64,000 nt of DNA, taken from positions 360-64,359 of IMG/VR virus record IMGVR_UViG_3300025168_013778; one strand, written 5' to 3'. Shown one piece after another: positions 699 to 40,001 of this stretch. A model generated the notes under the pieces. It was not told the origin of the DNA. It did not search any database and saw only the letters and a program-made list of their open reading frames with translations. This stretch comes from a virus. Taxonomy: Duplodnaviria > Caudoviricetes. The first letter of the stretch is position 1; each line of letters opens with the position of its first letter. The translations under genes and the position numbers were made by a program.

Positions 699-721
699 GA
701 TAATTTTAATTTTTTTTGCAT

Positions 722-6748: not shown

Positions 6749-6789
6749 AGTAAATTATTTTTATACCTATAAATATTTGAAACTAAACT

Positions 6790-7485
6790 TTACTCGTCTT
6801 GGAATTGCGTTGTAAGGGCTTTATAAATTACTTTATATTTTTTAAGTGAATTTCTAATCTCTTTTGTAGTTAAATTCGTCATTTCTCTCAGAGAAAGTAA
6901 AATTAAATTTTTATTAAATTTATTACCCGCTCCATGTAAGAATATCTCATTATAGTTAGTAAAGACTTCTATTAAAGCCATACCTATTTTTCTTTCATTT
7001 TCATTTAGATTAGTAATTGACATAAATTCTTCTATCTCATCGACTAATGTATTAATGAATTTATTAATGTCCACTTCTTCAGTGTCTATATAATATACTT
7101 GGTCTGGACGTTCTTCGATACTAGAAGACATGTCTTCATATGAAAGGGTTCTGTTTGTGTGTTTTTGGTCTTTGATTATTTGACCCATTAAATAATTTTT
7201 ACAAATTGTTCCGAAATAAGAATATGCTTTTTTACCTTTTTCGGGTTTAAACTTTTCAGCTTTTGTAATTAAAAAAGAAAGAGTGTCAGCGTGAATATCT
7301 CTAAATTCTTGACCTTTTCTATAAAGTTTATAACGTCTAATAATACTATCAATCATTTTATTTATGGGTGCATAGAGATGTTTTCTATAGACATCATTCC
7401 TTTGGTCCATAGTGGTAGCGGTCAAGAACATACATACAGCATGTTCTTGTTCGCGTCCAAAATAAAAAGTAGTTTTAGCAGTCAC
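6790..7485 (-). CDS. phage RNA polymerase sigma factor (T4 gp55-like late sigma)
   Basis: 'KFKPEKGKKAYSYFGTICKNYL' matches sigma region 2.3-2.4 (FDPEK..AFAYFT.I..N.F); C-terminal HTH-like segment. Confidence 0.7.
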   Translation of the reverse strand: MTAKTTFYFGREQEHAVCMFLTATTMDQRNDVYRKHLYAPINKMIDSIIRRYKLYRKGQEFRDIHADTLSFLITKAEKFKPEKGKKAYSYFGTICKNYLMGQIIKDQKHTNRTLSYEDMSSSIEERPDQVYYIDTEEVDINKFINTLVDEIEEFMSITNLNENERKIGMALIEVFTNYNEIFLHGAGNKFNKNLILLSLREMTNLTTKEIRNSLKKYKVIYKALTTQFQDE

Positions 7486-8276
7486 TAGTCAAGACTTGGT
7501 TCATATTTTATACCTCTATCGGTAGTGAAAAAATATTCTTTTTTAGCTGCATCAATCCAAAACTTAGCTTCGTCAGGATTTACAATTTCCTGTTCTTTAT
7601 TTCTATAATTCCAGAAAAGAGAGTTTTCTCTCATGTTAGTATGTTTGTAACCAACCTTAGGAATTGTCATAATTTTCTTATCGTTATATGTAGCTCTTAA
7701 TAAAAATTCATAAACAAATGTTAATTTCATGGAAGGTTTAAACCCACCTATGTCCTCAAAAGAAGACTTTTTAAATGCGACACCACTTGTTTGGAAATTT
7801 TGGTATTTTAATAGACACCCATTATCTAGGTAACCCATTTTATCACTAAAATTCATTGCCCATACAGCTTCATTAGTGAAGTTTAGGAATTCACCACCTT
7901 CGTTAACATCTACCACAATAGGTAAAAAGGCTTCTACATCATCGTATGCCTCAGCGTACTTCTTAAAATTGTCTATCCAAATATTTGAGAACTCATCATC
8001 AATTTCTAAAATTGTAAACCAGTCAGTCTCAATCCCCTCAACAGCAACATTAATTTGTGAAGTAAATTGGCTATCACCGTCATTCTCTATTAAAGTAACG
8101 TCTAAGTCACCAAAGTCATAACTTTCTAAAAAGTCTTTAACCTGTGGTGTGTGTACGACATAATTTTTATCTGCAACAACTTTTTGTGTTTTGATGCTTT
8201 CTATTGCTTTTCCGAAATACTCTTCTAATTGGGGAGTCATTTCATTAATTGGTATAATTGTACTAATAGTATTCAT
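7485..8276 (-). CDS. glycosyltransferase, GT2-like (GT-A fold)
   Basis: N-terminal 'ISTIIP', acidic 'EIDDE' motif, 'FEDIGGF', 'YEFLLR'. Confidence 0.75.
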   Translation of the reverse strand: MNTISTIIPINEMTPQLEEYFGKAIESIKTQKVVADKNYVVHTPQVKDFLESYDFGDLDVTLIENDGDSQFTSQINVAVEGIETDWFTILEIDDEFSNIWIDNFKKYAEAYDDVEAFLPIVVDVNEGGEFLNFTNEAVWAMNFSDKMGYLDNGCLLKYQNFQTSGVAFKKSSFEDIGGFKPSMKLTFVYEFLLRATYNDKKIMTIPKVGYKHTNMRENSLFWNYRNKEQEIVNPDEAKFWIDAAKKEYFFTTDRGIKYEPSLD

Positions 8277-8277
8277 T

Positions 8278-9366
8278 TTATTTTTCTTCTTTTTCTGTAA
8301 ATTTATTCAAAGCATTTGCAATATCATTTTCTTTTTCTTGGAAAAGTGACCCAAAATATTCTAATAACATTTCGCTTTGAGTTTTGTCATCATATTTTGC
8401 TACTGTTTCATCCATTTTTTTGTATAGTTCTTCAGGTACACTATCCTCCAACCAAGTCTTAACATAAGCGTTAATGACATCTACAATTGAGTTAAAGTCG
8501 TAAGTCCAGAAACCATTATCTTCTTCTAACCATTCTGGTTTTAGATTAGGTATTTTACCTACTACCGGTACACCAGATTTCATACACTCTAATGGGAAAG
8601 TTCCAAACCCAGAAATGTCATCAACCCAAACAGCACCACATGCTTCCTTCATATTACTAGCGAAATCATCAGTAGACATTCCTCTCATGTCTCTAAATGT
8701 TATCCATCTAAATTGTGGGTATTTAGTGTAAAAAGATTTTACAATTTTCATAGTGTCTCTAGGTTCTCTAGTATGTATTAACATAACAGGTGGTTGTAAA
8801 GTTTCACTTTTAGAAAATTTATCTGAAATACCATTAGGGATAACCGATACCTCAGCACCTGGGAACATCCCTCTAATGTATTCTCCAGAAACTCTAGAAG
8901 TAGTTATAACTCGATTAAATCCAAAATTCACCCAACTAGCTCCTGGTTGTAACATTTCAAATATGTAATCATATGATTGACAAAGTACGATTTTAGTACA
9001 AAACATCTCACCAGTCTGTTCCATAACATGAGCATACATTTCAGGTACAATTAAAAAATCAGAAGGCCCAACTTTAAGTTGTTGACTTTCAATAGAAGCA
9101 TGAGGAAGACTAGAGTACTCTTTACCTAACCAGTCAGAAAGACCCATAGTGTTTTCGTCTCCTTCAAATTTGTAATTGTCTTTTTCGTGTAAGATAATTG
9201 CGTCATATCCAGCATTATTTAATAGTTTAACGTATTCATAAATGACAGCAACAGATGCTTTAGGGGCACCTTGTGTGTCCTGTGTTAAAAAGTAAATTTT
9301 ACTTTTTTTGTTTTTTACTAAGGCTAGAGATTCCTCTAGGTTTTTAATTTTTTCTTCGTCTTTCAT
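8278..9366 (-). CDS. glycosyltransferase, GT4-like (GT-B fold)
   Basis: 'VIPNGI' and 'GFGTFPLECMKSGVPVV' GT4-type C-terminal motif. Confidence 0.75.
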   Translation of the reverse strand: MKDEEKIKNLEESLALVKNKKSKIYFLTQDTQGAPKASVAVIYEYVKLLNNAGYDAIILHEKDNYKFEGDENTMGLSDWLGKEYSSLPHASIESQQLKVGPSDFLIVPEMYAHVMEQTGEMFCTKIVLCQSYDYIFEMLQPGASWVNFGFNRVITTSRVSGEYIRGMFPGAEVSVIPNGISDKFSKSETLQPPVMLIHTREPRDTMKIVKSFYTKYPQFRWITFRDMRGMSTDDFASNMKEACGAVWVDDISGFGTFPLECMKSGVPVVGKIPNLKPEWLEEDNGFWTYDFNSIVDVINAYVKTWLEDSVPEELYKKMDETVAKYDDKTQSEMLLEYFGSLFQEKENDIANALNKFTEKEEK

Positions 9367-9368
9367 TT

Positions 9369-9677
9369 TTATTTTATTTCTTTTAAAACATTATTTTCGA
9401 TAAGGGTATTGAAGGCTAATTTAAAATCAAACCCCGTTTTATCTAAAGCTAAATAACTAATACTGTTATCCATCTCTTCACTTTGACTTAAGACAACCTC
9501 TAACATTAATCTAAATATTTCATATTTGGGTGCATTAATCTCAAATTTATTTCCGTCGGTATTACCAATCATTACTAATTCTAAAAATGCTTCAACATCT
9601 ATCACCATTTTAGCTCCATAACAATCTAATTGTAAGTTCTTTAAACTATTATTAAATACTTTTCTATTTATTTTCAT
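9369..9677 (-). CDS. hypothetical protein
   Basis: 102-aa ORF in operon. Confidence 0.55.
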   Translation of the reverse strand: MKINRKVFNNSLKNLQLDCYGAKMVIDVEAFLELVMIGNTDGNKFEINAPKYEIFRLMLEVVLSQSEEMDNSISYLALDKTGFDFKLAFNTLIENNVLKEIK

Positions 9678-10227
9678 CTATTATTTTGGATAGATTTTTT
9701 ATGGATTTTATTGTAAAATCACTTTTTATATTCTTATTATACTTATTTTTAAATTTTATTGAAGTCTTATCGCTTGGTTTTTTATTTAATACGGACTCTT
9801 CACTAGTTACAAATATATCAGTTTTATCCCAAGCCTCGTCTGATTTATTTAGTGGGTAAAACTCTATAGAGTCAATTAAAGACCCATGTTTTGCTAAGAA
9901 TACTAGAGTTGCAGGTTTTGATTTTTCTATTTCTTCTGAAACAAGAACAATTTTATATTCATCTCTAAATTTTTTATAAAAGTCATTAAGGTCTATAAAA
10001 GAAGAACCTTCTTCTAATTCATTCGAATAACCGAAAAGCTGAAGTGGACACTCCACATACATAAAATTAATTAGGTCTTCTTGTGTGTCAAACTCCAAAT
10101 GCTTAACTAAATCCAAATCAGGTAGTTCACCCTCAAACTCTTTTTCATTATATTTGTTATTTAAAGATATTAATTTAGTGGTAATATCCCTTAAAACACC
10201 AGTAATACTTATAGAAATTCTTTTCAT
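9664..10227 (-). CDS. 5'(3')-nucleotidase (NT5C)/HAD-fold protein with degenerate active site
   Basis: 'MKRISISITGVLRD' aligns to 'I.IDIDGVL.D' but lacks both Asp; C-terminal 'NKYNKN' typical of NT5C. Confidence 0.5.
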   Translation of the reverse strand: MKRISISITGVLRDITTKLISLNNKYNEKEFEGELPDLDLVKHLEFDTQEDLINFMYVECPLQLFGYSNELEEGSSFIDLNDFYKKFRDEYKIVLVSEEIEKSKPATLVFLAKHGSLIDSIEFYPLNKSDEAWDKTDIFVTSEESVLNKKPSDKTSIKFKNKYNKNIKSDFTIKSIKNLSKIIDENK

Positions 10228-10230
10228 AAT

Positions 10231-10896
10231 TTAATAACCGTTTAATAGTGTTAATAATTCTTCTATAGACTCATGTCTATGACTATCATTAAGTACGCAT
10301 TTAAAAACATAATCTGAATTTGTTAATTTAGACATGTCATGTATCGCTGAATAATTTTTATCTTTCAAATCTATTTGATATGAATCTCCACAAAATATCA
10401 TTTTTGAGTCTTTCCCCAGTCTACCAATTGCCATGGCTAACTGACCTTTCGTTAAGTTTTGAAATTCGTCCACAATTACAATTGCGTTATCAAAAGTTCT
10501 TCCCCTAAAATGGGCCAGTGACACCAACTCAATCTGTTCCGAGTTTTCCATTTTTTCTAATATGTTAGGTTTATTATATACCTTTCTCATATTACTTCTA
10601 ATAGGTACTAACCAAGGTTCCATCTTTTCTCTTTCAGAACCAGGTAAGAACCCATTGTCTTCTGTGGATATAGTTGGTCTTGTAATTATAATACTATTAT
10701 ATTGTTTTTTAAAAAACATGTCTAACGCAACTTGTACTGCTAGTAATGTTTTACCACTTCCTGCTCTACCAACAACAAAATTGTAAGGGTTTTTTAAAAT
10801 TTCTGCCTTAGCTTTTTTTTGTTCCGGCGATAAGGTTATGGAAAATCTAACAGAACCTTTAGGCGGTGTTTTATCTAAATTAGTTTTTGCCATCAT
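10231..10896 (-). CDS. phoH: PhoH family ATPase
   Basis: GRAGSGKT Walker A, 'GFLPG', 'RGRTF', 'DEFQN', 'GDSYQID'. Confidence 0.92.
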   Translation of the reverse strand: MMAKTNLDKTPPKGSVRFSITLSPEQKKAKAEILKNPYNFVVGRAGSGKTLLAVQVALDMFFKKQYNSIIITRPTISTEDNGFLPGSEREKMEPWLVPIRSNMRKVYNKPNILEKMENSEQIELVSLAHFRGRTFDNAIVIVDEFQNLTKGQLAMAIGRLGKDSKMIFCGDSYQIDLKDKNYSAIHDMSKLTNSDYVFKCVLNDSHRHESIEELLTLLNGY

Positions 10897-11696
10897 AATA
10901 TAAAATTTTTCATTTCTTTAATTTGTTCCTCTAATTCAGGAACATTAATAATAGGTTCTAAATCACTCGCTAATGTCCTATCACATTTTTCATAAGTATC
11001 TTTAGCTGTAACTTTAATGTTAAGTTCGTAGTGATTACTTATTATTTCTACTAGTTCCTTTTTTGTAACTGAAGTTGGTGAAAACATATGTCTACACCCA
11101 TCCCAAAATAAATTTTTAGATACTATTTCAGAACAAATTTTTGCAAATTGTAAACATGTAACCCCATTCCAGTGATGGTTAGTATATCCAAATATGTGAT
11201 TACCCTTTTCTGATTTCACCCATTCTACTAAAGACCTAGAAGTTCTTAATTCTTCACCTATAATAGATGTTCTAATTAAAGTACAGTTCTTAGGTTCACC
11301 AAGAGACTTGGTTCTACCATAAATGTCGGTAACATCGTGTTCATCTTTTTCAGTATAACCACCTTTATTACCTATAAAAACACAGTCGGTAGTTGGGTGT
11401 ATCATTCTTACACCATATTGTTTACAACTATCAGCTAATTTATGTGGAAATAAAGAATTTACAATTAAAGCATTTTGAACACCTAATTCATCTACTCTAG
11501 GTTTTATAGTTCCCATACAATTTATTACAACATCACCTTCTGAGACCCCACCAAAAAATCGTGAAAAGGATAGTCCACACATATCAGAAGCGTCTAATTG
11601 ACTTCTACCTACATTAATAACATTATAGTAATTAGATAGGTATTTCGAAACATACCTACCTAACATTCCTGAAGAACCTAGAACAAATATTTTCAT
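10893..11696 (-). CDS. RmlD-family NDP-4-keto-6-deoxyhexose reductase
   Basis: GSSGMLG, 'TTDCVF', YGRTK; likely start MKIFVLG at 11696 rather than 11741. Confidence 0.85.
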   Translation of the reverse strand: MKIFVLGSSGMLGRYVSKYLSNYYNVINVGRSQLDASDMCGLSFSRFFGGVSEGDVVINCMGTIKPRVDELGVQNALIVNSLFPHKLADSCKQYGVRMIHPTTDCVFIGNKGGYTEKDEHDVTDIYGRTKSLGEPKNCTLIRTSIIGEELRTSRSLVEWVKSEKGNHIFGYTNHHWNGVTCLQFAKICSEIVSKNLFWDGCRHMFSPTSVTKKELVEIISNHYELNIKVTAKDTYEKCDRTLASDLEPIINVPELEEQIKEMKNFIL

Positions 11697-11697
11697 T

Positions 11698-12117
11698 TTA
11701 TCTATATTCTTCATCCCAAATATTCCACTTATCATACTCAAATCTTATATCATCATCCATACTTTCTTCAAGAGTGGATGTAGAATAGAAAATAATTTTA
11801 GTGTTCTCCTCAAGATTTTTAAATCCATTAGCGTGACCAGGTGGAATCCATAGAATTTTAGGTGTTTTGGAACTTAACACAAATTTTTCTATTTTTTGGG
11901 TATCTAAATTTACCACACCAATCAATGCACTACCTTGAGACACGTAAACATATTTTCCTTCATGTTTATGTCCATGCCATGCTCTAATAAAATCACGTCT
12001 GTGATTCTCAACTTGGTAGAATCTTTTAACCCCACCAAAGTCAAATTCATTTACGAAGGACACAGAACCTCTATCATCAACTACTGTACCACCGCCTATT
12101 ACTTTTGCTTCTTTCAT
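11698..12117 (-). CDS. cupin NDP-sugar epimerase/isomerase (RmlC/FdtA-like)
   Basis: 'DDRG', 'RAWHGH', 'IPPGHANGF'. Confidence 0.85.
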   Translation of the reverse strand: MKEAKVIGGGTVVDDRGSVSFVNEFDFGGVKRFYQVENHRRDFIRAWHGHKHEGKYVYVSQGSALIGVVNLDTQKIEKFVLSSKTPKILWIPPGHANGFKNLEENTKIIFYSTSTLEESMDDDIRFEYDKWNIWDEEYR

Positions 12118-13080
12118 TTAAAAAGTTTTTATTTTTCTTAATTCAGTTAGATAACCACCATTATGATAAACTAAATCTTCAGGGTCTTTTATTCTAGACT
12201 CCTCAAACATTTTAACCATTCTTTCTACCTCATGTTCTACAGTTATTGTAGGTTGGTAGGTGAAAGTACTTAGTGATTTACTATTATCTACTTTATAGTT
12301 TCTAGCATCTTGAAAAGAGATTTGGGTATACTTTATTTCCGTATTAGGAATTAATGCTGCTACTCTTTCCCCTAGTTCTTTTATAATAACATTTTCTTTT
12401 GATAAAACATAGATTCCATCGTATTCTTTTTCACACGCTTCAGTTATGTATTCCGCAATATCAATAACTGAAATAATTGGTCTCCACTGTTCTCCCCCAT
12501 TAATGTTTATTTTACCATATTTTAATGCTTTCATAGTTAACACATTAACCACTAAATCCATTCTTAATCTACTGTACGTATCACCCAAACCGAATACTGT
12601 ACCCAATCTAAAAATCGTCCCTCCTCTTTTGGTTACATATTCTTCAGATTTAAGTTTTGTACTAGCGTAAGAAGATAATGGGTTAGTTTCACTATTCTCA
12701 TCTAACATACCATCTTGAGCTCCATAAACTGAACATGTTGACATGAAGACAACGTGTTTATCAACCGGAATACTTTCACAAGCATTTTTAATTGATTTGT
12801 AGTTTATGTCTTCGGTTAATTCTTGGTCTACACTACATGCCGGGTCACCAACTAAAGCGGCCATTAAAACAATAACGTCAAAATCCTCAGAAGCTTTTGC
12901 TAATTTTTTATGGTCTCTTATATCACCATGTATAAATTTAACACCTTTAAGGTATCTATTTTCATATAGTAGGTTGTCATATATAGTAACATCATGACCA
13001 TTTCTAATTAATGTGTCACTAGTTAATCCACCTATATATCCTGCTCCACCTACAACTAATACTTTTTTATTCATTTCCAT
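12118..13080 (-). CDS. NAD-dependent epimerase/dehydratase (extended SDR)
   Basis: GGAGYIG, 'STCSVYG', YASTK. Confidence 0.9.
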   Translation of the reverse strand: MEMNKKVLVVGGAGYIGGLTSDTLIRNGHDVTIYDNLLYENRYLKGVKFIHGDIRDHKKLAKASEDFDVIVLMAALVGDPACSVDQELTEDINYKSIKNACESIPVDKHVVFMSTCSVYGAQDGMLDENSETNPLSSYASTKLKSEEYVTKRGGTIFRLGTVFGLGDTYSRLRMDLVVNVLTMKALKYGKININGGEQWRPIISVIDIAEYITEACEKEYDGIYVLSKENVIIKELGERVAALIPNTEIKYTQISFQDARNYKVDNSKSLSTFTYQPTITVEHEVERMVKMFEESRIKDPEDLVYHNGGYLTELRKIKTF

Positions 13081-13417
13081 ATTTTTTTACTTCGGGATTA
13101 AATCCAGCATTTAAATCCCCACTTTTATATCTTGTAAACATAGAGATTACTTTTTCATCTATGCATTTTTTTAATCTAGCTCTTTCTCTAACTAACTTTA
13201 CGTCCTCTACTGATGCCCAAGATTTAAACTCTTCATCGGTAGGACGTAACATTACCTCATCTTTTAATTTATATAACTTAAAATTAACAATAGACAACCT
13301 ATCAACTAACTCACCCATAGACATTAATTCCTCAAAAGGATTACCTAAGGTGTAACTTTGGTCGTAGTTGTCTATAGACGTTAAAATAGTATTTTCTATA
13401 TTATCACTTATTTTCAT
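13067..13417 (-). CDS. DUF4254-like small helical protein
   Basis: 'SMGELVDRLSIVNFKLYKLKD'; paralog of 14372..14728. Confidence 0.55.
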   Translation of the reverse strand: MKISDNIENTILTSIDNYDQSYTLGNPFEELMSMGELVDRLSIVNFKLYKLKDEVMLRPTDEEFKSWASVEDVKLVRERARLKKCIDEKVISMFTRYKSGDLNAGFNPEVKKYGNE

Positions 13418-14385
13418 AACTTATCACTAATTTTTTTATAATACTCTACAGTATTTTTTATTCCTTCTCTTAGGTCAGTTTTTGTAGACCAACCGAGATG
13501 GTTTATTTTTGTGACATCTAAACATTTTCTTTCCATACCCATAGGTTTAGAAAGGTCACATTCTATTTTACCTTTAAACCCACACACATCTTTAATGATA
13601 TTAGATAATGTTAAAATGTCCACATCAATTCCAGACCCAACGTTTAAAAACTTTTCAGTATAGTCTAGATTGGACATAGACCAAACCATAGAATCTACCA
13701 AATCATCAACATATAAAAATTCTCTTCTAGTATTTCCATTACCCCACAATTCTACTTTACTTGAATTTAGTTCTGTTGCGTCTACAAATTTTCTAACTAA
13801 AGCGGCCATTACATGTGAGTTATGTAAATCAAAATCATCTTCTGGACCATAGAGATTACAAGGTATTAAGGATATAAATCTGGTTAGATGTAAATCTTTA
13901 TTGTGTTGTTTACCATATAATTTATTAGCATATTCACATAATTTTAAACCAGCAATTTTAGCTAAAGAGTAACCTTCGTTTGTTGGTTCTACTGGGGATT
14001 CTAACATACACTCTTCTTTAAATGGTTGTTGAGCATTTTTTGGGTAGATACAATTTGACCCTATAAATAAAACTTTTTTAACTTTTGTTTTAATTGAAGC
14101 TTCTATTAAGCTATTTTGTATTTCTAAGTTGTCCATTAGGTGACCGTAAGGGTCATCTAAATTAGCCTGAAGACCACCACACTTAGCGGCACAAATAAAT
14201 AGAAAATCAAAACTATATTTTTTAAATAGGTTTAAAGTGTCAGCTTGACTTCTAAGGTCTAATTCATCTCTATTAAAGATATGTACATTAGTGTAACCAT
14301 CAGTTACTAATTTCTTGTATAATCTACCACCCAAAAAACCACTATGCCCAGCGACGTATATCTTTGAATCTTTATTTAACTTCAT
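13414..14385 (-). CDS. fcl: GDP-L-fucose synthase / ColC-like epimerase-reductase
   Basis: GHSGFLG, 'AAKCGG', 'GSNCIYPK', YSLAK, 'NLYGPEDDF', 'REFLYVDD'. Confidence 0.88.
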   Translation of the reverse strand: MKLNKDSKIYVAGHSGFLGGRLYKKLVTDGYTNVHIFNRDELDLRSQADTLNLFKKYSFDFLFICAAKCGGLQANLDDPYGHLMDNLEIQNSLIEASIKTKVKKVLFIGSNCIYPKNAQQPFKEECMLESPVEPTNEGYSLAKIAGLKLCEYANKLYGKQHNKDLHLTRFISLIPCNLYGPEDDFDLHNSHVMAALVRKFVDATELNSSKVELWGNGNTRREFLYVDDLVDSMVWSMSNLDYTEKFLNVGSGIDVDILTLSNIIKDVCGFKGKIECDLSKPMGMERKCLDVTKINHLGWSTKTDLREGIKNTVEYYKKISDKL

Positions 14386-14728: not shown

Positions 14729-14762
14729 ATCTTTTTTTTTAATAATACCTAATTTTTATTAG

Positions 14763-15539: not shown

Positions 15540-15540
15540 T

Positions 15541-16554: not shown

Positions 16555-16558
16555 AGTT

Positions 16559-17350: not shown

Positions 17351-17426
17351 TTCTTAATTTATTTATTTTTTATTCTTATCACTTTATAGTAACTTATACT
17401 AACTTTATGATACGAAAATGTTTATG

Positions 17427-18245: not shown

Positions 18246-18247
18246 AT

Positions 18248-22962: not shown

Positions 22963-23846
22963 TTTTTTATTTTATTTATAAATTTTATTAAATCGGTTGC
23001 GTAGTTTAACCAACTCATATTTTCTACTTGACCTCTTCTTTTTAATAGAGGTTCTTGTACTTTATCTAAAATTTTAGATAAGGCATTAACATCGTTTGCT
23101 GGAAAAATATAGTCCGGTTCTAACTCATATCCAGCAAAACCAACATCAGCTGAAATCACTGGTGTACCAGTACTTAAAGATTCTTGAAAAGATATTGGTC
23201 CAGCAGTCCATAATCCAGGTATTAACAAGTAATCTATTTCTTGATAAAATTTTGGGTACACACTGTAGTCAGCGTCACCAGTTAATTTTAAATCAATATT
23301 ATTTCTTTTAGCTATAGGTTTTAAAGCATCCCATCCATCACCCAAAAATCTTAACTTAAAGTTTTTAAAGTCATAAGAAGATACCATTGCTTCCATAAAT
23401 TGTTGTCCATATCCTGGATAACCTCCTCTTGAAACAACCCCTATAGTTAACTTTTTAAGTGGAAACATATCTCTAGGTTCTCCAGGTGTAATAGTTTCTA
23501 TTTTATCTGCAGGCCAACCCATAGACTTTAACATGTCAGTATACCTACCATTCATACTAACAATCCCATCTAGGTTCTCAAAAGATTTAGTTGTGGTTAA
23601 TAAATTACGTAACCATTGAGCACTATTTCTGTCTGCGTGAGTAAAATATGCTACGTCTAATTTAGTTTTTTGACCATGGTAACAATTTTGTAAGTCAGCA
23701 TAGTAATTTACGTCGGCATTTGGGTCGGCTTCGTGAGAAACAGTCATAGTATATCCTTCTATATTTTCATTACAGGCCTTTGCTGTTCTTTCAGATATTT
23801 TTTGAAGTATCCAACCACTAGTAACAGTTACAATGTTTATTCTCAT
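22959..23846 (-). CDS. glycosyltransferase, GT4-like
   Basis: '[22 protein letters not shown]'. Confidence 0.75.
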
Positions 23847-24808
23847 TTTAAAAGGTTTATATCGTTTTCTACCATTTTAGCTACTAATTCTTTAAAACTA
23901 GTTTTTCTTTTCCACCCTAATTCATTTTCTGCTTTACTAGAGTCACCTTTTAAATAATCTACCTCTGCTGGTCTCATAAATCTTGGGTCTTGTTCTACAT
24001 ACTTACTCCAGTCATTGATGCCTATATACTTAAATGCGATATCTAAAAACTCTCTAATAGAGTAAGATTCACCGGTTGCGATAACATAATCATCTGGAGT
24101 ATCTTGTTGCATCATTAACCACATAGCTTCCACATAATCAGGGGCATATCCCCAGTCCCTTAAAGAATCCAAATTACCTAAAGTTATTTTATCTGCCAAA
24201 CCTAATTTAATTTTTGCCACACCGTCTGTAATTTTTCTAGTGACAAATTCGTGACCTCTTCTTTCAGATTCATGATTAAAAAGAATACCACTACAATTAA
24301 ACATATCGTAAGACTCTCTATAGTTTTTTGTTATCCAATGTCCGTACAGTTTTGCAACACCATAAGGACTTCTAGGGTAAAAAGGAGTGCTTTCAGTAGC
24401 AGGATTTTCTGACATCCTTCCGAACATTTCAGATGAACTCGCTTGATAGAATTTAACTGGTTTATTGTACATTCTTATTGCTTCTAACATTCGTAAAACA
24501 CCAAGACCAGTTATTTCACTTGTTTGTTCTGGAGTGTTCCAACTCTCACCAACAAATGATTGTGCCGCTAGATTATATACTTCGTCTGGTTGAGACTCAT
24601 TTAAACATCTTAATAGTGAGTTTTGGTCAGATAGGTCCCCCATTAAAAAATTAACTTTTTCTAGTAAGTGTGAGGTGTTTCTAATATTTTTAGTGGAGGC
24701 TCTTCTTTCGACACCGAACACTTCGTATCCTTTTTCTAATAAAAAGTCAGCTAGGTGACTTCCATCCATTCCACTAATTCCTGTTATTAAAGCTCTTTTT
24801 TTAGTCAT
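23843..24808 (-). CDS. gmd: GDP-mannose 4,6-dehydratase
   Basis: '[15 protein letters not shown]', 'YNLAAQSFV', '[10 protein letters not shown]', 'PRSPYGVAK', 'LFNHES', 'RDWG'. Confidence 0.95.
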
Positions 24809-25592
24809 TTGTTTTTTGTTTTTCTTCGTAAAGTTCTATTATTTTCTTTTTATTTCTTGGGTCTACAACGTCAGTTTTGTTAAACCAAGAAGGTAATATG
24901 CCATCTTCTAGTGGGGCAACATCTAAAGTTTTTTCGTCTAAAAGTCTATCAAGGTCCCAACCCTTTTGACCAAAACCTTTATATGTATCGTACTTTGTTA
25001 TAATTTGTGAGTCAGTAGCAAAACCTCTATGTACAACGTTAAATCCTGAATTTGCAACTCTTCTAAAAGTTAATGGATATTGTGGTTTATGTAATCCTGG
25101 ACTATTATCAAATTTTAATCTTCCAGTGTTTCTCCATAAAGGACACCATTGACCATGTAATCCATGATAACCTTCATCTAACCTATAGTGGATATCACTT
25201 CTCCATAAATTATAATGACCAAAGAAAAAAGCTTCTATTCCTTGTTGCATTCCCGCATCACATAACCCTCTTAGATTTTGTCCATTATTGTCTAACAATC
25301 TACCATCTAAAAGTAGGTCACCATCTAACCATAAAACCCAATCCACATCTGGGTGGTCAAGTAATAATTGGTCCATCAATTCTTGTTTACAGATTAATTC
25401 TTCTTTAAATCTGTTAGTTGGGGACTCTATAACCACGGTATTGTCAAATTTTTTATAGTACTCTTTACTACCATCATCAGAGTTCTGGTCAAAGATATAT
25501 CTATAGTCACAAGGTTCCGTACACTTAAACCAATTTTCTAGATTACCTTTATTTAATTCGTTCCTTAATTGTGTAAAAGCTATTATTTTCAT
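24801..25592 (-). CDS. glycosyltransferase, GT2-like
   Basis: 'DQNSDDGS', 'WLDGD'. Confidence 0.75.
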
Positions 25593-25639
25593 TTTCTGTT
25601 TTTTTTAATTATAGTTATATTTAAACACTTTTTAAATGC

Positions 25640-26452
25640 TTAGTTGACTATTTTCCAACCCGTTTCTTTTAAAGTAACATCGTTAAAAAGTTTTTTATTT
25701 TTATCTAACAATTCTTGAGTATTTGTAACACCAGCCCAATTAAATTCACTGTAATGGTGTTGGTGTACTACGAATGGGGAGTCTACCACATTAACAACTA
25801 AACCTTTTCTCCTAATTCTTAATAATATCTCATTATCGTCAAACGCTATACCTTTAGCGTATCTCTCATCAAATCCCCCCATTTCTTGTATGTGTTTTGT
25901 TGGGATTACTGAACAAAAGTGATAAGCTACAGGTCTAAATCTGCTGTGGTTGTACCAGCCGTCACACCCATCACATTCTACTGGTCCTTGTTTAATTGGT
26001 GTCAGACACAGGTTAATTTTTTCTAACCACTTATCCGAATCAAAATTTATAGTCCCAAACCTATCTGTTACGTCCTCAGTTAATGAGTAACAACCAAAAG
26101 AAAAATAATCATTATCTTTAATATTTTCTATTGCTGTACTAACCAGGTCCCCAACATGTAAACATTCCGGATTTTGTAACATGGTTAATTTTCCTGTAGC
26201 GGCTCTAATTCCAATGTTAAAAGGTACTGAAGGATTGTAGTACCATTTATCTTCAGGGTTAAGTCTAATAACTTTAAAATCGAAATTAAAAGTACCTATT
26301 AAATCCTCTAACCTTTCCTCTTCCCTTGAACCATCGTCAACAACTATAATTTCAATATCACTAGCGTACTTAGAGTTATTTATTGTTTTTAAAGTTCTAA
26401 TAAATAATTCCTTTCTATTGTAGTATGCTGTTACTATGGATAACTTTTTCAT
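25640..26452 (-). CDS. glycosyltransferase family 2
   Basis: 'SIVTAYYNR', 'VVDDGS', 'GGFDERY..GIAFDD'. Confidence 0.85.
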   Translation of the reverse strand: MKKLSIVTAYYNRKELFIRTLKTINNSKYASDIEIIVVDDGSREEERLEDLIGTFNFDFKVIRLNPEDKWYYNPSVPFNIGIRAATGKLTMLQNPECLHVGDLVSTAIENIKDNDYFSFGCYSLTEDVTDRFGTINFDSDKWLEKINLCLTPIKQGPVECDGCDGWYNHSRFRPVAYHFCSVIPTKHIQEMGGFDERYAKGIAFDDNEILLRIRRKGLVVNVVDSPFVVHQHHYSEFNWAGVTNTQELLDKNKKLFNDVTLKETGWKIVN

Positions 26453-27528
26453 TAAAGTGAATTTTTTAATGTTTCTATTACTTTAGTAGAAGTCATTCCA
26501 TCACCTAACCAATGACTGTCCATTAAATTTTTTGACTTTTTTAACCATTTTAAAGAATCGTACCAATCATCATTATATTCTTTTTCCATATTAATCATCA
26601 TAGAACAATGGGAACCTATTGATTCGGGTCTTTCTGTATATTCTCTTGGGACTAAAACGGGAGTTCCCATAATAGCAGGTTCTTCTTGAGCTGTTCCAGA
26701 ATCAGATATAATAAATTTAGAATTATAGACCGATTTCATATAATTTTTATAGGACATTAAAGGAACTACCTCTATATCACCTAAGTCAACACCATATTCT
26801 TCTATTTTATTTTTAGTCCTACCAAACTCTAACATTTTAACTGGTAGTCTATATACCGCACTTACCCATTTTGTAAATTCAATTATATTAACTAAACGAT
26901 GTTTATAGTTGAAATTTTCAGGACGATGAATATCTAGAATAATCTGATTATTTTTTGGAGTACTTTTAAAATCTTTATTTTCCTTAATTAATTTTTTTGC
27001 TACCTCAACAATAGTATTACCTACCACATGTACCCCTTCTGTTATATTTTCTTTTTCTAATTTTTTTCTGTAGTTCTCATGATAAACAAATAATAAATCA
27101 CTACATGTATCGCACACCATTCTATTCACTTCTTCTAACATCCTTTTATCTCCTGAACGCATACCAGCTTCTATATGACCAATTCTATAACCTTCTTTTT
27201 TAAGAGCGACTGCAGAAACTACTGAATTAGAATCACCCAAAAACAATATAATTTCTGGATTAATATTTTTTTCTCTAAATAATTCTATTAGTTTTATTGA
27301 AAGGTCAGCGGTTTGATGAAAATGTTCTTTACCGGGACCACCAACAGATAAATTATAATCGGGCTTTCGTATTTTTAATTCTTCAAAAAATACACCTGAC
27401 AATAAATCATCATAGTGTTGTCCAGTATGTATTAAAATATGATTAAATTCTTTATCTAATTTTTTAAATATTTCAGACATTCTTATAAAGTCTGGTCTAA
27501 TTCCAGTTACTGTTACTATTGTTTTCAT
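26452..27528 (-). CDS. UDP-N-acetylhexosamine 2-epimerase, non-hydrolysing (WecB/FnlC-like)
   Basis: 'GIRPDFIRMS', 'HTGQHYD', 'LGDSNS', 'HIEAGMRS', 'EEVNR', 'SDSGTAQEE', 'TERPE'. Confidence 0.9.
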   Translation of the reverse strand: MKTIVTVTGIRPDFIRMSEIFKKLDKEFNHILIHTGQHYDDLLSGVFFEELKIRKPDYNLSVGGPGKEHFHQTADLSIKLIELFREKNINPEIILFLGDSNSVVSAVALKKEGYRIGHIEAGMRSGDKRMLEEVNRMVCDTCSDLLFVYHENYRKKLEKENITEGVHVVGNTIVEVAKKLIKENKDFKSTPKNNQIILDIHRPENFNYKHRLVNIIEFTKWVSAVYRLPVKMLEFGRTKNKIEEYGVDLGDIEVVPLMSYKNYMKSVYNSKFIISDSGTAQEEPAIMGTPVLVPREYTERPESIGSHCSMMINMEKEYNDDWYDSLKWLKKSKNLMDSHWLGDGMTSTKVIETLKNSL

Positions 27529-27530
27529 TT

Positions 27531-28301
27531 TTATTTTATGTTAAATTTATCTTCTATTTTTTTTATGTTGTAAAACTTATCTGGAGCACCCCCCATTAAA
27601 GCTTGTTTACCATACTCCCAAGTATTAAAATAATTTACCAACTTGTCAATGTTTTGAAAATTCGGACTTGCGGATGAGTTGGTTAACTTAACTCTAATGT
27701 CATTTCTAACATAACTTAAATGGTGCATTTCAATCTCCTCCCTAGTGAAGATTTTACAATTTCCAGCAGGCATTCTTCTAGTTGGGTCTACCAATACTGG
27801 AAAAGGGCACCCAACAAATGTTTTTCCTGGAGCTATTTTATATATTAACGAAACATAGTAGTCTTCCATTGGGTCTAATCTATATTCGGTATTTTTATAA
27901 TATGTGACTAACTGACAAGCTGATGAATCATAGTTACCCTCCTCAATAGTTGAACACATAAATTTAAATTGTTTACTATCGTAATATTCGTCAGTGTCCA
28001 TAGACATGTGGTGAGTACATTTTGCCCCTTCAGATAAAAACAACCCAATGTTACGTTTCATAGACTCATTAAAATGACCACCTTGATTTATTTTTGGTTT
28101 GTATTCAAATAGTTCATCCACTAAACCTTTTTCTTTTAACGAGGTTAGTAGTGGTAAAAGATTTGGGTCACACTGGTTACCAAAGTTAGATTTTTCTTGA
28201 TAAACCACAGATATAAAATCTACTTGGTCTCGTATACATAATATAGATTTTTCTAATAGTTCTTCCCCATCAAATACGTTGTAAGATATTCCTAATTTCA
28301 T
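27531..28301 (-). CDS. putative glycosyltransferase (GT-A-like)
   Basis: 'MDTDEYY' DxD motif, 'KRNIGL', 'MHHLSYVR'. Confidence 0.6.
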   Translation of the reverse strand: MKLGISYNVFDGEELLEKSILCIRDQVDFISVVYQEKSNFGNQCDPNLLPLLTSLKEKGLVDELFEYKPKINQGGHFNESMKRNIGLFLSEGAKCTHHMSMDTDEYYDSKQFKFMCSTIEEGNYDSSACQLVTYYKNTEYRLDPMEDYYVSLIYKIAPGKTFVGCPFPVLVDPTRRMPAGNCKIFTREEIEMHHLSYVRNDIRVKLTNSSASPNFQNIDKLVNYFNTWEYGKQALMGGAPDKFYNIKKIEDKFNIK

Positions 28302-29819
28302 TTATTGTACTTTTATATATTTTAATAATTTTTTATTATGTTGATTTACAAATTGCATTAATTGATTAAAGTCTTCAGGTTTAATAGCCCCCTCACTTTT
28401 TCTAGTTCTACTTTCAAAATGGTAAGCCACAGCGTTACCAGCAAACATATTTTTTCTGCCTTTTATAATACATTGCATGTTAAGTTCAACATCCTCTAAA
28501 CAATCCATATATTGTTCATTAAACATCCCAATCTCCTCGAAAAGAGACTTTTTTATTAATAGAAAAGCACCAGTATTACCCAACGTGTCTATTAAATTAT
28601 TAACTGGGTAGTTATAAGAAGACCTAAACCCTTGATGCCCCAGACCAATCTGCATTCTACCATCTTTTTGGGGTTGTCCAAACAACATAACTCCTCCATG
28701 TTGGATGGTGTTGTCGTCAAAGTGTAGTCTAGCACCTACTGTACCACAACTTTTTTTATTTTTAATGTAAAGACCAACCATTTCTGTAATAGCGTCGTTT
28801 AACAACTCAATATCATTATTACAAAAAAGTAATAATTCACTATCACTATCACAGTGATTTTTAACCACATCGTTATTTGTCCCAGCAAAATGGTAAAATT
28901 CAAACTCTATTAAATTTACTTTATTTTTATTACAATATTCTCTTATTAGTTTTAAATTATCTTCATCACTACCTGTATCTGCAACTGTAATTTTATAATT
29001 GGGATAGGTGGAGACATTAATTATTGAGTCAATACAACCTTTAAGTAATTCAAAATTATTTTTGTTTGGGATGATTATTTCTACTTTAGGTGTTTCTTTA
29101 AGTGATTTTTTTACCTCGTTAAATTTTATTTCAGGTTTAACGTGAGTAGGTAATAAGGGTTCGTTGGTTTTTGAGTCCACAGAAAATTTTTCTACAAACT
29201 TTTTTCTATTTTCTTCCCATTCTTCATTGGTTTGACCTATAGATTTGTGTGTTATTTTTACATCAAAAATCACACCTAACTTGACACCAGCAATAAAATT
29301 GGAAAAACAAAAATCAACATCATAAAAGTGAAACCCTTCAACTCCTTCATCAAAGGTGTTAACTATTCTTTTTTTGTGACAAGAAAAAAAAACACCATCT
29401 AAACAACATACATTTAAAATTTGTTTAGGAAAAGTAGAACTATATGAATTAACCCAAGTTTTACCTTCGTGAGTGTGACTAACCCTACCAACCATTTTTG
29501 TTGTGTCTTGCCACCATCTACCAGTTGAGGACATATGTGTGGTTCCAGCAACACCTAAAATACCATAATCAGATTCTTTATACCTATCTAATAATTTTCT
29601 TCCCCAACCCTTACTATTAAAGGATATATCATCATGGGCTAAAACAACCACATCATTTTTTGCTTGTGATAAGGCTCTATTATAAATTTCAGTTAATGAT
29701 GTCCCATCTGGATTTTCAAATGGAAGTATCTCAAGATTCTTAACACCACACGTTTTTTTAATGTGGTCAATATAGGAAGAATTTATTCTTCGTGTACTAA
29801 ATGCTACGGTTAGACTCAT
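28302..29819 (-). CDS. two-domain glycosyltransferase (GT2-like + GT2)
   Basis: Domain 1 'HDDI..', 'FHFYDVD'; domain 2 'IIIPNK', 'DTGS', 'CNNDI', 'EDVEL', 'HFESRTR'. Confidence 0.85.
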   Translation of the reverse strand: MSLTVAFSTRRINSSYIDHIKKTCGVKNLEILPFENPDGTSLTEIYNRALSQAKNDVVVLAHDDISFNSKGWGRKLLDRYKESDYGILGVAGTTHMSSTGRWWQDTTKMVGRVSHTHEGKTWVNSYSSTFPKQILNVCCLDGVFFSCHKKRIVNTFDEGVEGFHFYDVDFCFSNFIAGVKLGVIFDVKITHKSIGQTNEEWEENRKKFVEKFSVDSKTNEPLLPTHVKPEIKFNEVKKSLKETPKVEIIIPNKNNFELLKGCIDSIINVSTYPNYKITVADTGSDEDNLKLIREYCNKNKVNLIEFEFYHFAGTNNDVVKNHCDSDSELLLFCNNDIELLNDAITEMVGLYIKNKKSCGTVGARLHFDDNTIQHGGVMLFGQPQKDGRMQIGLGHQGFRSSYNYPVNNLIDTLGNTGAFLLIKKSLFEEIGMFNEQYMDCLEDVELNMQCIIKGRKNMFAGNAVAYHFESRTRKSEGAIKPEDFNQLMQFVNQHNKKLLKYIKVQ

Positions 29820-30786
29820 ATTTATTTATGTAAAATTTAATTGTTTCTGTTAATTCGGTTATAAAATCAGTTTTTGGTTTCCACCGTAATTTATTTTTTA
29901 ATTTATCTGAATTAACCGCGTATCTGTCATCATGGCCAACCCTATCTTCTACAAACGTAACTAAGTTTCTAGAATCAGTCTCATTATTTTTTATGGTGTC
30001 GTATATTTGACATATTTTAGTGACCAAATTAAAGTTTGATATTTCATTGTGAGTACCTATGTTATATTCTTCACCCGATTTTCCATTATGAAATACAACA
30101 TCTAAAGCATCTACATGTTCCTTAACACTCAACCAATCCCTAACATTTTCACCTGTACCATATATAGGTATTGGTCTTTTGGTTACTAAAGATTTTACTA
30201 TGGTCGGTATAAACTTTTCGTCATGTTGATGTGGTCCAAAATTATTAGAACAATGAGTTATATTACAATTTAAATTATATGTTCTATGAAAAGAAAGTGT
30301 AAGTAGGTCTGCACAGGCTTTTGACGCTGCGTAAGGTGAGTTAGGTTTATAAGAAGTAAATTCATAAAAATGAGACTTTTCATTTAAAGGAAGGCTACCA
30401 TAAACTTCATCTGTAGAAACACTTAATAGTCTACAACTGTGTTCTAAACATAAATTAATCATGTTAACAGTACCCATAATATTAGTGTCTATAAAAATGT
30501 CTGGATTTTTTATGGAGTTATCCACGTGTGTTTGAGCGGCTAAATGAAATACACCATCAAAACTATATAACTCAAATAACTTACTAATTATCCTAGTATC
30601 TGTTATATCTTGTTTGTGAAATGTTACATCATCTATCACTTCTTTTAAATTATCTATGTCACCTGCATAATTTAAATTATCTATAATGTGTAAATTATAG
30701 TGGGGGTATTTGTTAACTAGAAATTTAACCAGGTAACTACCAATAAATCCCGCTCCTCCTGTAATTAATATTGTTCTTGATTGCAT
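29797..30786 (-). CDS. rmlB: dTDP-glucose 4,6-dehydratase
   Basis: GGAGFIGS, 'HLAAQTHVDNSI', 'STDEVYG', 'PNSPYAASKA', 'EKFIP', 'DRVGHDDRY'. Confidence 0.93.
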   Translation of the reverse strand: MQSRTILITGGAGFIGSYLVKFLVNKYPHYNLHIIDNLNYAGDIDNLKEVIDDVTFHKQDITDTRIISKLFELYSFDGVFHLAAQTHVDNSIKNPDIFIDTNIMGTVNMINLCLEHSCRLLSVSTDEVYGSLPLNEKSHFYEFTSYKPNSPYAASKACADLLTLSFHRTYNLNCNITHCSNNFGPHQHDEKFIPTIVKSLVTKRPIPIYGTGENVRDWLSVKEHVDALDVVFHNGKSGEEYNIGTHNEISNFNLVTKICQIYDTIKNNETDSRNLVTFVEDRVGHDDRYAVNSDKLKNKLRWKPKTDFITELTETIKFYINKYESNRSI

Positions 30787-34718: not shown

Positions 34719-34770
34719 AAAATTAATTTCTTTTATGAAAAAGTACAAATAATAAAGTAATTAGTCAATT

Positions 34771-39974: not shown

Positions 39975-40001
39975 AAAGATATTTAATAATAAAGAGAAGA
40001 T

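Follow-up and report, generated by a model that had tools for sequence, protein, structure and literature searches.

The window analyzed here comprises 64,000 nucleotides of a tailed phage and corresponds to positions 360-64359 of the 64,359-base viral record IMGVR_UViG_3300025168_013778, whose completeness is estimated by CheckV at about 20%. Between positions 7485 and 30786 it carries an island of 28 open reading frames (ORFs) rich in nucleotide-sugar enzymes and glycosyltransferases (GTs). ORFs were called as the longest non-overlapping frames and annotated with Pfam, PHROG and NCBIfam, and the DegT-family enzyme was searched against solved structures. A first-pass annotation had described a co-oriented, tightly packed and phage-borne cluster, and this description holds: all 28 ORFs are on the minus strand, most of them abutting or overlapping and the rest separated by small gaps. 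The window also encodes a 1207-aa tail sheath, a tail tube, a baseplate hub, a family-B DNA polymerase (PolB), a helicase and head-tail connector-like proteins, an independent record is collinear with it, and the same gene frame recurs in 80 loci. The genes of the island and its flanks are listed below from the dUTPase side to the sigma side; frame or core genes are the conserved ones, and cargo genes those that vary between related phages.

33495-34748, minus strand: core GT no. 4 (GT417), 417 aa, GT-B-like, outer frame member on the dUTPase side (phrog_7162, E 3e-40)
31424-32131, minus strand: 3'-5' exonuclease-like protein (DNA_pol_B_exo2, E 2e-11)
30792-31421, minus strand: dUTPase, frame marker (PF00692, E 3e-23; syntenic in 5/5 large relatives)
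29797-30786, minus strand: RmlB, dTDP-glucose 4,6-dehydratase, cargo (TIGR01181, 373 bits, cut-off 365)
28302-29819, minus strand: core GT no. 3 (GT2_5), N-terminal Glyco_tranf_2_5 domain fused to a second GT2 domain (PF13712, E 1e-27; PF00535, E 2e-18)
27531-28301, minus strand: cargo ORF, possible divergent GT-A (no Pfam, PHROG or NCBIfam match; dN/dS, the ratio of nonsynonymous to synonymous substitution rates, 0.046)
26452-27528, minus strand: UDP-N-acetylglucosamine (UDP-GlcNAc) 2-epimerase, WecB-like, cargo (PF02350, E 1e-63; TIGR00236, 198 bits, below the cut-off of 210)
25640-26452, minus strand: GT2, cargo (PF00535, E 7e-12)
24801-25592, minus strand: GT2-like protein, weak, cargo (Glyco_tranf_2_4, E 4.8e-4, below cut-off)
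23843-24808, minus strand: Gmd, GDP-mannose 4,6-dehydratase, cargo (TIGR01472, 434 bits, cut-off 415)
22959-23846, minus strand: GT1/GT4-type GT, cargo (Glyco_trans_1_4, E 6e-8)
21811-22962, minus strand: ColD-type GDP-4-keto-6-deoxymannose 3-dehydratase of the DegT family, cargo (best solved match ColD/WbdK 2gms, E 6e-60)
20996-21811, minus strand: cargo ORF, probable divergent GT-A (no Pfam match; atlas rank 10 is a GT2 cluster, score 0.97, 178 shared features)
20256-20996, minus strand: GT2, cargo (PF00535, E 3.6e-7)
19022-20269, minus strand: NDP-hexose C-methyltransferase, cargo (Methyltransf_14, E 5e-37; Methyltransf_13 zinc domain, E 5e-11)
18248-19021, minus strand: cargo ORF without a family match in Pfam, PHROG or NCBIfam (dN/dS 0.03)
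17427-18245, minus strand: S-adenosylmethionine (SAM) methyltransferase, weak, cargo (Methyltransf_23, E 1e-5, below cut-off)
16559-17350, minus strand: short nucleotide-sugar dehydrogenase (Ugd)-like protein, 263 aa (TIGR03026, 142 bits, below the cut-off of 190)
15541-16554, minus strand: short-chain dehydrogenase/reductase (SDR) epimerase/dehydratase, cargo (PF01370, E 1.5e-39)
14763-15539, minus strand: GT2, cargo (PF00535, E 8e-11)
14372-14728, minus strand: DUF4254 small ORF, cargo (PF14063, E 2.4e-6)
13414-14385, minus strand: GDP-L-fucose synthase-like protein, Fcl or ColC (NF047922, 341 bits, below the cut-off of 500)
13067-13417, minus strand: DUF4254-like small ORF, cargo (PF14063, E 1.7e-4, below cut-off)
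12118-13080, minus strand: SDR epimerase/reductase, cargo (PF01370, E 1.4e-29)
11698-12117, minus strand: cupin, RmlC/FdtA-like, cargo (dTDP_sugar_isom, E 9e-11; TIGR01221, 26 bits, cut-off 156)
10893-11741, minus strand: RmlD-like reductase, cargo (RmlD_sub_bind, E 5e-20; TIGR01214, 63 bits, cut-off 224)
10231-10896, minus strand: PhoH-like ATPase, frame marker (PF02562, E 2e-49)
9664-10227, minus strand: frame ORF of about 190 aa (p190)
9369-9677, minus strand: frame ORF of about 100 aa (p100), aligned with its orthologues (A4)
8278-9366, minus strand: core GT no. 2, GT-B (GT1/4-like), weak in the window (E 0.01)
7485-8276, minus strand: core GT no. 1, GT-A (GT2-like), weak in the window (E 3e-3)
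6790-7485, minus strand: sigma-like gene, last of the co-directional block (Sigma70_r2, E 2.3e-4)
4404-6380, minus strand: 658-aa neighbour (p658)

The glycan region is a fixed frame with swappable cargo in one cassette slot. A profile of the core GT-B gene detected at least 578 viral contigs with a relative. In total, 80 loci were fetched, with frame genes counted only in loci with sufficient flank, and 108 island ORFs of five large relatives (60-99% complete) were annotated, their core and cargo being separated by reciprocal BLAST as well. The frame runs in the order GT417, exonuclease, dUTPase, GT2_5, cargo, PhoH, p190, p100, GT-B, GT-A and sigma-like gene. GT417, dUTPase, the N-terminal domain of GT2_5, PhoH, p190, p100, GT-B, GT-A and the sigma-like gene are common to all six genomes compared. 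Among eligible loci, GT-A and the sigma-like gene occur in 79 of 79 each, PhoH and p190 in 73 of 73 each and p658 in 72 of 72; p100 was found in 69 of 73 and p122 in 66 of 72.

Since core GTs are present on both sides in all six genomes, the four conserved GTs (7485, 8278, the N-terminal domain of 28302, and 33495) bracket the cassette slot. The interval from dUTPase to p658 is syntenic and measures 10.7, 12.0, 15.2, 20.6 and 21.8 kb in the five relatives and 24.4 kb in the window. In the 15 loci in which the dUTPase is visible, the slot measures between 67-86 bp and 7.7 kb, and elsewhere it exceeds 8 kb. In the loci L142, L146, L152 and L153 the dUTPase adjoins PhoH (67-86 bp), cargo and GT2_5 are lacking, and the sigma-side GT-A and GT-B are kept.

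The cargo of the window consists of the genes at 10893-28301 plus RmlB. Within a reach of at most about 8.4 kb beside PhoH per locus, 589 cargo ORFs were collected from 75 loci and grouped into 174 families (single linkage lumps the SDRs into one), of which 91 are confined to one locus. The overlap between loci is accordingly small, with a median pairwise Jaccard index of 0.077 over 1830 pairs. Representatives of 150 of the 174 families were scanned, and 74 had a Pfam match (E<=1e-5), nearly all of them to glycan chemistry. The cargo is different in each genome, and in the five relatives its GTs include GT11, NodZ/FUT8-like fucosyltransferases, GT17 and GT7. Decorating functions are represented by sulfotransferases, a pyruvyl-transferase fusion and FkbM and TylF methyltransferases, and there are an AsnB-like amidotransferase and an HMGL-cytidylyltransferase fusion.

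The core GT-A and GT-B genes, weakly matched in the window, have orthologues with clearer assignments: those of 7485 match PF00535 with E 1e-9 to 2e-5 (50-57% identity in the core genomes) and those of 8278 match Glycos_transf_1 with E 2e-6 to 3e-5 (45-51% identity). In the GT-A family an E-x-D-D-E motif is invariant, and its profile matches 6p61 (E 1e-5). The GT-B profile matches the solved GT 8xsg (E 4.5e-11), its sole significant solved relative, and no relative of this GT was matched among GenBank phages. The N-terminal domain of 28302 is found in all five relatives, at 37% identity in a 93% complete one (G003) and at 47-55% in the other four, while its C-terminal fusion partners vary (GT4, pyruvyl transferase). 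The GT that had been placed at 33495 was confirmed as well. Its orthologues share 54-92% identity in G002 and G004-G007 (5/5) and 65% in G003, and it always lies 0.5-2.1 kb beyond the dUTPase; in G003 there is an overlap with the start of the major capsid gene. In the 99% complete relative (G004:C1:187222-188451), the orthologue contains two in-frame TAA stops and may be a pseudogene or an assembly error. The homologue in phi92 was considered as a functional clue, but it sits in a four-GT cluster without a stated function and was of no help.

Altogether, eight genes of the island are Pfam-supported GTs (E<=0.01), of which those at 14763, 20256, 22959, 25640 and 28302 are firm, and with weaker leads the number rises to at most 11. 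The 11 GT or GT-like genes counted initially are therefore supported in eight cases; 20996 and 27531 remain leads, and 18248 has no family match. By its atlas neighbour, 20996-21811 is probably a divergent GT-A. The same is possible for 27531-28301, whose atlas neighbours are viral clusters, one of them with PF00535 in 13% of its members. A single-sequence AlphaFold model of 18248-19021 (pLDDT 35) was unusable.

Most of the sugar chemistry proposed in the first-pass annotation is confirmed. Gmd and RmlB exceed their equivalog cut-offs, and the 2-epimerase, two further SDRs and the C-methyltransferase are supported by their Pfam domains. In ColD, an active-site histidine replaces the lysine of aminotransferases. 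The ColD-like label of 21811-22962 is supported, since ColD is the best solved relative and the gene retains His-His at the position that separates the mutant entry 3b8x from the wild-type 2gms. For the GDP-colitose route, Gmd and ColD are thus present together with a ColC candidate at 13414-14385, which falls short of the cut-off of the Fcl model. The RmlC-like and RmlD-like proteins belong to the right superfamilies but are not equivalogs by score, and the product of the dTDP branch may be a 6-deoxyhexose other than L-rhamnose. The second methyltransferase (17427) was recovered as a weak match. Overall, deoxy- and methyl-sugar chemistry is encoded, as seen from the Pfam, NCBIfam and solved-structure matches.

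The Ugd-like assignment holds for the motifs: GxGxxG and the catalytic Cys-x-P-K-D are retained and dN/dS is 0.036, but about 40 residues of the N-domain and the entire C-terminal UDP-binding domain are missing. Similar short forms are present in G004 and G007. Together with the copies at L098:6809-7627 and L102:5481-6305, the conserved short protein measures 263-274 aa, and a full-length 404-aa form exists in the clade as well (L178:4910-6124). PhoH, two DUF4254 ORFs and two conserved small ORFs lie inside the span and had not been mentioned initially. Both DUF4254 ORFs adjoin SDR or GT genes, and further cassettes contain members of the family as well (L140:1854-2108). None of the 28 island genes matched tail-fibre families in Pfam or PHROG.

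The first-pass annotation had noted the lack of polytopic membrane proteins, flippase (Wzx), polymerase (Wzy), initiating phosphoglycosyl transferase (PGT) and nucleotidylyltransferase. This was examined with six-frame family searches of the window's record and six relatives (seven records, two of them 93-99% complete), with 14 control genomes. NTP_transferase was found in none of the seven records and in all 14 controls. The initiating transferases Bac_transf and Glycos_transf_4 were likewise absent from all seven, compared with 9 and 12 positive controls, and the searches for Polysacc_synt (Wzx) and Wzy_C returned 0/7 each; each of the five family searches was positive in 9-14 of the 14 control genomes. 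In the Pfam inventory of G003, which covered 273 of its 274 ORFs (E<=1e-6; one 1139-aa ORF missed), no activation, initiation or export family appeared. ABC2_membrane was not seen in this inventory either, and no separate search for it was made. Exporter and initiating-transferase families were also missing from the 150 scanned cargo representatives.

Hydropathy gave the same picture. Among the 589 cargo ORFs, hydrophobic segments are missing from 577, a single one is seen in 12, and no ORF reaches two. No G003 ORF has 8-12 membrane spans, the most hydrophobic protein having about five segments and no family, and in the real genes between 6790 and 37341 no span was found except the Rossmann N-terminus of RmlB, in a hydropathy scan without positive control. 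As family searches, G003 inventory and cargo hydropathy are all negative, the absence holds at the level of the clade. The absence of NTP_transferase also supports the proposal that host NDP-hexose pools are drawn on, and of the RmlABCD route RmlB is present while RmlA was not found in the seven records.

The integrity of the region was checked against the independently assembled record G002, which aligns to window positions 185-32146 in one 32-kb block with 86.5% identity and onward to 42498. All 44 minus-strand ORFs between 193 and 37341 have 1:1 orthologues in G002. The dN/dS ratio is at most 0.11 in 26 of the 28 cluster genes, the exceptions being 9369 (0.21) and 17427 (0.36, with a dS of only 0.026). 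Given these low ratios, the ORFs without database hits and the short Ugd-like gene are real, constrained genes. At window positions 17427-19021 (G002 81412-83006) dS is 0.03-0.21, compared with about 0.5-1.2 in most other genes, which suggests recent recombination inside the cargo.

The G + C content is uniform at 30-36% across the window and at 30-34% in the cluster and its flanks, and a tRNA scan of the window found none. By megablast against GenBank phages, nothing beyond a 142-bp Gmd match was obtained, and the closest PolB among these phages is about 25% identical. With the window PolB as query, 144 related IMG/VR contigs were found, some of 270-298 kb; relatives with the same frame reach this size at 88-99% completeness. 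Since no cultured phage is close while PolB leads to contigs of this size, the window is a fragment of an uncultured aquatic jumbo myophage.

Moraphages are jumbo phages from aquatic habitats, with genomes of 200-307 kb (Perez-Hernandez et al., Arch Virol 2025, PMC12619734). Their core comprises dUTPase, PhoH, a sigma factor, PolB, gp23 capsid, portal, sheath, tube, gp25, Clp ATPase, prohead protease and glutaredoxin, and also four putative GT orthogroups whose role is left open in the accessible text; they carry DnaK/DnaJ and glutamine synthetase, and the predicted hosts are Bacteroidota (PMC12619734). Family searches recovered this core gene set in the window and G003, and the four GTs kept in all six genomes compared agree with the four-GT core. 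The lineage is therefore probably that of the moraphages, the match being one of gene content and description, not of sequence, and its hosts are likely Bacteroidota. The accessible parts of the article flag the variable genomic islands for future study without analyzing them, and contain neither the frame-plus-cassette layout nor the cargo content or the absence of export genes described here (PMC12619734).

The genes of G003 include a chaperone and protease set (DnaK, DnaJ, Hsp20, ClpB-like, ClpP), a glutamine-synthetase-like protein, SAM synthetase, gp23 capsid, gp20 portal and prohead protease. In addition, a SusC-like TonB-dependent receptor and two type-IX-secretion C-terminal domains (Por_Secre_tail, CHU_C) are encoded at G003:C1:32099-34504, 39355-43320 and 290040-290570. 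The SusC-like receptor and the type-IX sorting domains are Bacteroidota-specific features within a phage genome. In the tail sheath of the window (50775-54398, plus strand, 1207 aa), the roughly 470 positions of the sheath profile are distributed along the full length, which implies about 700 aa of inserted domains.

The flanks had been described as sigma and baseplate genes on one side and dUTPase on the other. The dUTPase stands, and the sigma identity of 6790-7485 is weak but consistent by sequence profile: Sigma70_r2 is matched in 27 of 46 orthologues (best E 8.8e-5), SigA by profile with E 0.012, and identity in the core is 58-71%. The baseplate label of p658 was dropped, as the protein has no family and its fold matches only uncharacterized myovirus proteins. 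A model from a 57-sequence alignment (predicted template modelling score, pTM, 0.62) gave two such proteins as viral fold matches and no match in PDB at E<=0.001, and the sequence profile found no solved structure. Profiles of p190 built from 7 and 46 sequences also had no match among solved structures; its N-terminal 'INGVLRD' may be a degenerate HAD motif.

Regulatory signals were searched in the window and in G003. The octamer ATATTTAT occurs 16 times in the window, 12 copies lying within 60 nt upstream of a same-strand start, among them those of the sheath, the tube, an adaptor-like gene and the 122-aa and 516-aa genes. In G003, 36 of 66 copies lie near starts, compared with 1-12 for 29 permuted octamers, so that ATATTTAT is, by sequence statistics, a strong promoter-like motif of the clade. 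The sites and the single hairpin that stands out are:

2523, 6769, 37356-37382, 46797-46825, 50725, 57981, 58699-58705 and 61099-61178: ATATTTAT sites
6769-6776, minus strand: first ATATTTAT after the island, 21 nt upstream of the next gene after the sigma-like one, which encodes 122 aa (same position occupied in G003, 212364)
34774-34797, minus strand: intrinsic-terminator-like hairpin just upstream of GT417 (9-pair stem, 5 GC pairs, T run)

The sigma-like gene lies immediately upstream of one ATATTTAT site, and the phage sigma-like factor may recognize the motif. On the sense strand, no copy was found between 36688 and 6790, and sigma-70-type promoters and terminators inside the island did not exceed shuffled expectation, except for the hairpin at 34797-34774. 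Lacking ATATTTAT and a convincing internal terminator, GT417, exonuclease, dUTPase, island and sigma-like gene form an apparent single block (about 28 kb). This layout is compatible with expression that precedes assembly or coincides with its onset, and it does not discriminate between acceptors. The -7 promoter consensus of Bacteroidota is TAnnTTTG. It was rejected for lack of enrichment in the window, with 3 of 96 copies at most 80 nt upstream of starts and 1-7 for six control patterns. Upstream of the gene at 193-663, two TATCTTTG copies (window 668-702, minus strand) fit the consensus, without enrichment across the window.

Regarding the acceptor of the glycan, we give about an even chance to the reading, based on analogy and parsimony, that the conserved GTs and the cassette glycosylate an acceptor that is phage-determined and most probably consists of one or more virion proteins. 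From host GDP-mannose, dTDP-glucose, UDP-GlcNAc and probably UDP-glucose, the cargo would make L-fucose and/or colitose, a possibly C-methylated 6-deoxyhexose and N-acetylmannosamine-type sugars, and it would supply at least four firm further GTs and two methyltransferases. The glycan would be assembled wholly by soluble enzymes in the infected cytoplasm. The four conserved GTs would prime the conserved acceptor, and the cassette would add a lineage-specific outer glycan, so that related phages would carry different surface sugars.

Several observations argue for a virion target. The core GTs are conserved like structural genes across a clade of at least 578 contigs, which fits a phage-encoded acceptor better than varied host structures, and in all six genomes a gp23-type capsid gene is found no farther than about 10 kb from the frame, in G003 right beside GT417. 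As in virus-encoded autonomous virion glycosylation systems, soluble nucleotide-sugar enzymes and GTs are clustered and lineage-specific. The fibril glycosylation clusters of Megavirinae, with 6-33 clade-specific genes, are similar in combining virus-encoded nucleotide-sugar and GT genes for bacterial-type rare sugars without any need for host secretory or export machinery; they differ in belonging to eukaryote-infecting viruses with unrelated proteins and in a chemically demonstrated fibril glycan, whereas the present island is known from its genes (Notaro et al., 2022, PMC10117803). Mycobacteriophage GTs modify capsid and tail-tube subunits (as described in PMC12619734). These GTs are phage-encoded and cytoplasmic, as here. 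The mycobacteriophage systems that Freeman and colleagues described in 2023 reportedly consist of one to a few GTs beside structural genes in siphoviruses, and are said to have neither nucleotide-sugar pathways of the island's size nor cassette turnover. Both precedents for exporter-free viral glycan clusters decorate particles, which by analogy points to a virion target.

In G003, mucin-like poly-Thr tracts (six Thr codons in a row) have 57 matches, the other six records being at control level, and five neighbouring large proteins of 399-4512 aa with poly-Thr/Pro linkers (G003:C1:173497-203235) are possible phage-specific O-glycan carriers.

The following points weigh against virion proteins as the acceptor. 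No island gene start bears ATATTTAT, the motif of sheath, tube and other virion genes, and the sequence layout of the co-directional block (about 28 kb) suggests that its expression may be separate from that of the late genes. Poly-Thr linkers had to be rejected as a clade-wide acceptor signature, being confined to G003. The cassette is dispensable, as four loci have no cargo at the slot. The enzyme 8xsg, the best solved relative of the core GT-B, is a glucoside-glucosyltransferase with successive transfer that acts on small glucosides. The absences at the whole-genome level rest on relatives, the window's own genome being sampled to about 20%. Finally, the authors of comparable pelagimyophage and cyanophage islands favour host-surface modification (PMC7029224, PMC12801897).

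The step from the missing Wzx, Wzy and PGT to a soluble acceptor, as drawn in the first-pass annotation, is not tight. Peripheral GTs build the outer cores of lipooligosaccharide (LOS) on lipid A-core at the cytoplasmic face, the product is exported by the host MsbA, and LOS loci also lack Wzx, Wzy and PGT. Since LOS-type assembly on lipid A-core needs none of these, their absence is consistent with a host envelope target. The soluble GTs would then extend a host lipid-linked acceptor and change the surface glycan of the infected cell, using either lipid A-core exported by host MsbA/Lpt or an undecaprenyl-linked unit primed and flipped by host enzymes; this could block superinfection, stop progeny from adsorbing to debris or alter grazing. 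We regard this remodelling of the envelope as a serious but rather unlikely explanation.

With O-antigen, capsule and LOS loci, the island shares conserved flanks around a variable cargo of sugar and GT genes, the enzyme families of the Gmd-ColD-ColC colitose route among them. The cargo families are typical of lipopolysaccharide (LPS) and capsule loci, with GT2/4/8/11, NeuB plus cytidylyltransferase, a Kdo-like SIS protein and sulfo-, pyruvyl- and carbamoyl-transferases. A virion motif is absent from the island, and its position in a block with DNA-metabolism genes would fit pre-assembly expression. Unlike O-antigen and capsule loci, it has no initiating PGT, flippase, polymerase or nucleotidylyltransferase in the seven records, while an ABC exporter was unseen, ABC2_membrane not having been searched separately; its content is closer to exporter-free LOS or flagellin-glycosylation islands than to Wzx/Wzy loci. 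In addition, no ligase was found in the seven records or the 589 cargo ORFs. The missing initiating transferase, flippase, polymerase and ligase speak against an envelope target, as does the invariance of the core GTs in a very large, divergent clade, since host core structures vary; a Wzy-dependent route would moreover require a matching host polymerase for each new cassette. As the G003 inventory holds no integrase or lysogeny gene, the benefit would be limited to one lytic cycle.

For pelagimyophage GT islands, modification of the host envelope is the published reading (Zaragoza-Solas et al., 2020, PMC7029224), and it is also that given for 22 genes which cyanophage S-SCSM2R carries under the heading 'cell wall synthesis and modification' (PMC12801897). 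The host recognition clusters of pelagimyophages and cyanomyophages, and the islands of large cyanophages, are likewise hypervariable and rich in GT and LPS-sugar genes in large aquatic myophages (PMC7029224, PMC12801897). The former are located between VrlC and gp14, interspersed with tail-fibre genes (PMC7029224), whereas the present island has no tail-fibre match, is bounded by four GTs, PhoH and dUTPase and belongs to a different lineage.

An improbable alternative is another product or several acceptors, for instance a soluble oligosaccharide or glycoside, non-virion phage proteins, host proteins, or different targets of core GTs and cassette. The glucoside-glucosyltransferase 8xsg as the only significant solved relative of the core GT-B, the four loci that keep the sigma-side GTs without cargo or GT2_5, and the presence of PhoH, p100 and p190 in the frame without an assigned role would be consistent with it. 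However, Pfam and NCBIfam revealed no genes for aglycone biosynthesis in the window, and the extreme cassette turnover is expected of a surface structure under diversifying selection, not of a metabolite.

Glycosylation of a modified base of the phage DNA, by which restriction would be evaded, is very improbable. The frame does hold dUTPase, exonuclease and PhoH and carries no virion-type motif, and phage GT clusters with GT-A and GT-B genes near DNA-metabolism genes, as here, put mono- to trisaccharides on 5-hydroxymethylcytosine (Pyle et al., bioRxiv 10.1101/2023.12.21.572611). Such pathways, however, need a ThyS-like hydroxymethylase or 5mYOX/TET, and neither the window nor the G003 inventory contains one or a partner of this kind tracking the island. 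Thymidylat_synt occurs in two of the seven records only, remote from the island and with more than 300 bits, like canonical ThyA; a six-frame search for Tet_JBP was silent, as was its control, and carries no weight. The 8-11 GTs and the methyl, sulfo, pyruvyl and carbamoyl decoration also far exceed the DNA glycans described in the accessible text (bioRxiv 10.1101/2023.12.21.572611). Lastly, misassembly of host O-antigen or capsule DNA into a phage contig, which the bacterial-type enzymes might suggest and which had been named as a finding that would overturn the first-pass annotation, can practically be dismissed in view of the uniform G + C content, the unbroken alignment to G002 across both junctions, the same frame in 80/80 fetched loci and the phage core genes that bracket the cargo.

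The glycan island is thus real, well-defined and ordinary for its clade. A GT-rich hypervariable island in large aquatic myophages (PMC7029224, PMC12801897) and the four core GTs of the lineage (PMC12619734) are already published. In the open-access literature, no prior description was found of the frame-plus-cassette architecture or its quantified turnover, of the clade-wide lack of export, initiation and activation genes, or of the colitose/fucose and C-methyl-deoxysugar content of the cassette.

Sets of sugar and GT genes in aquatic myophages have been reported for years with their glycosylation targets left open. The present clade is an unusually clean case, with a fixed four-GT frame, a single slot, no membrane parts in near-complete genomes and hundreds of cassette variants. 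If host envelopes are modified, it would represent a seroconversion system of lytic phages that hijacks host export. If virion proteins are the target, tailed phages that infect Gram-negative bacteria would, like giant viruses and mycobacteriophages, have a self-made glycan coat, with a bearing on adsorption, on evasion of defence and grazers and on virome typing. With either target, the cargo offers soluble rare-sugar enzymes (for colitose, C-methyl deoxysugars and sulfated, pyruvylated or carbamoylated glycans). We tentatively propose, with somewhat less than even confidence, a 'glycotype' locus by which a very abundant Bacteroidota jumbo-phage clade of at least 578 contigs primes its own virion proteins with four invariant cytoplasmic GTs, while a swappable, O-antigen-like cassette sets the outer glycan of each strain, in this phage one with fucose or colitose and a C-methyl deoxysugar. 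Phage serotypes would then evolve by cassette exchange, and the system would be the prokaryotic-virus counterpart of the fibril glycosylation of giant viruses.

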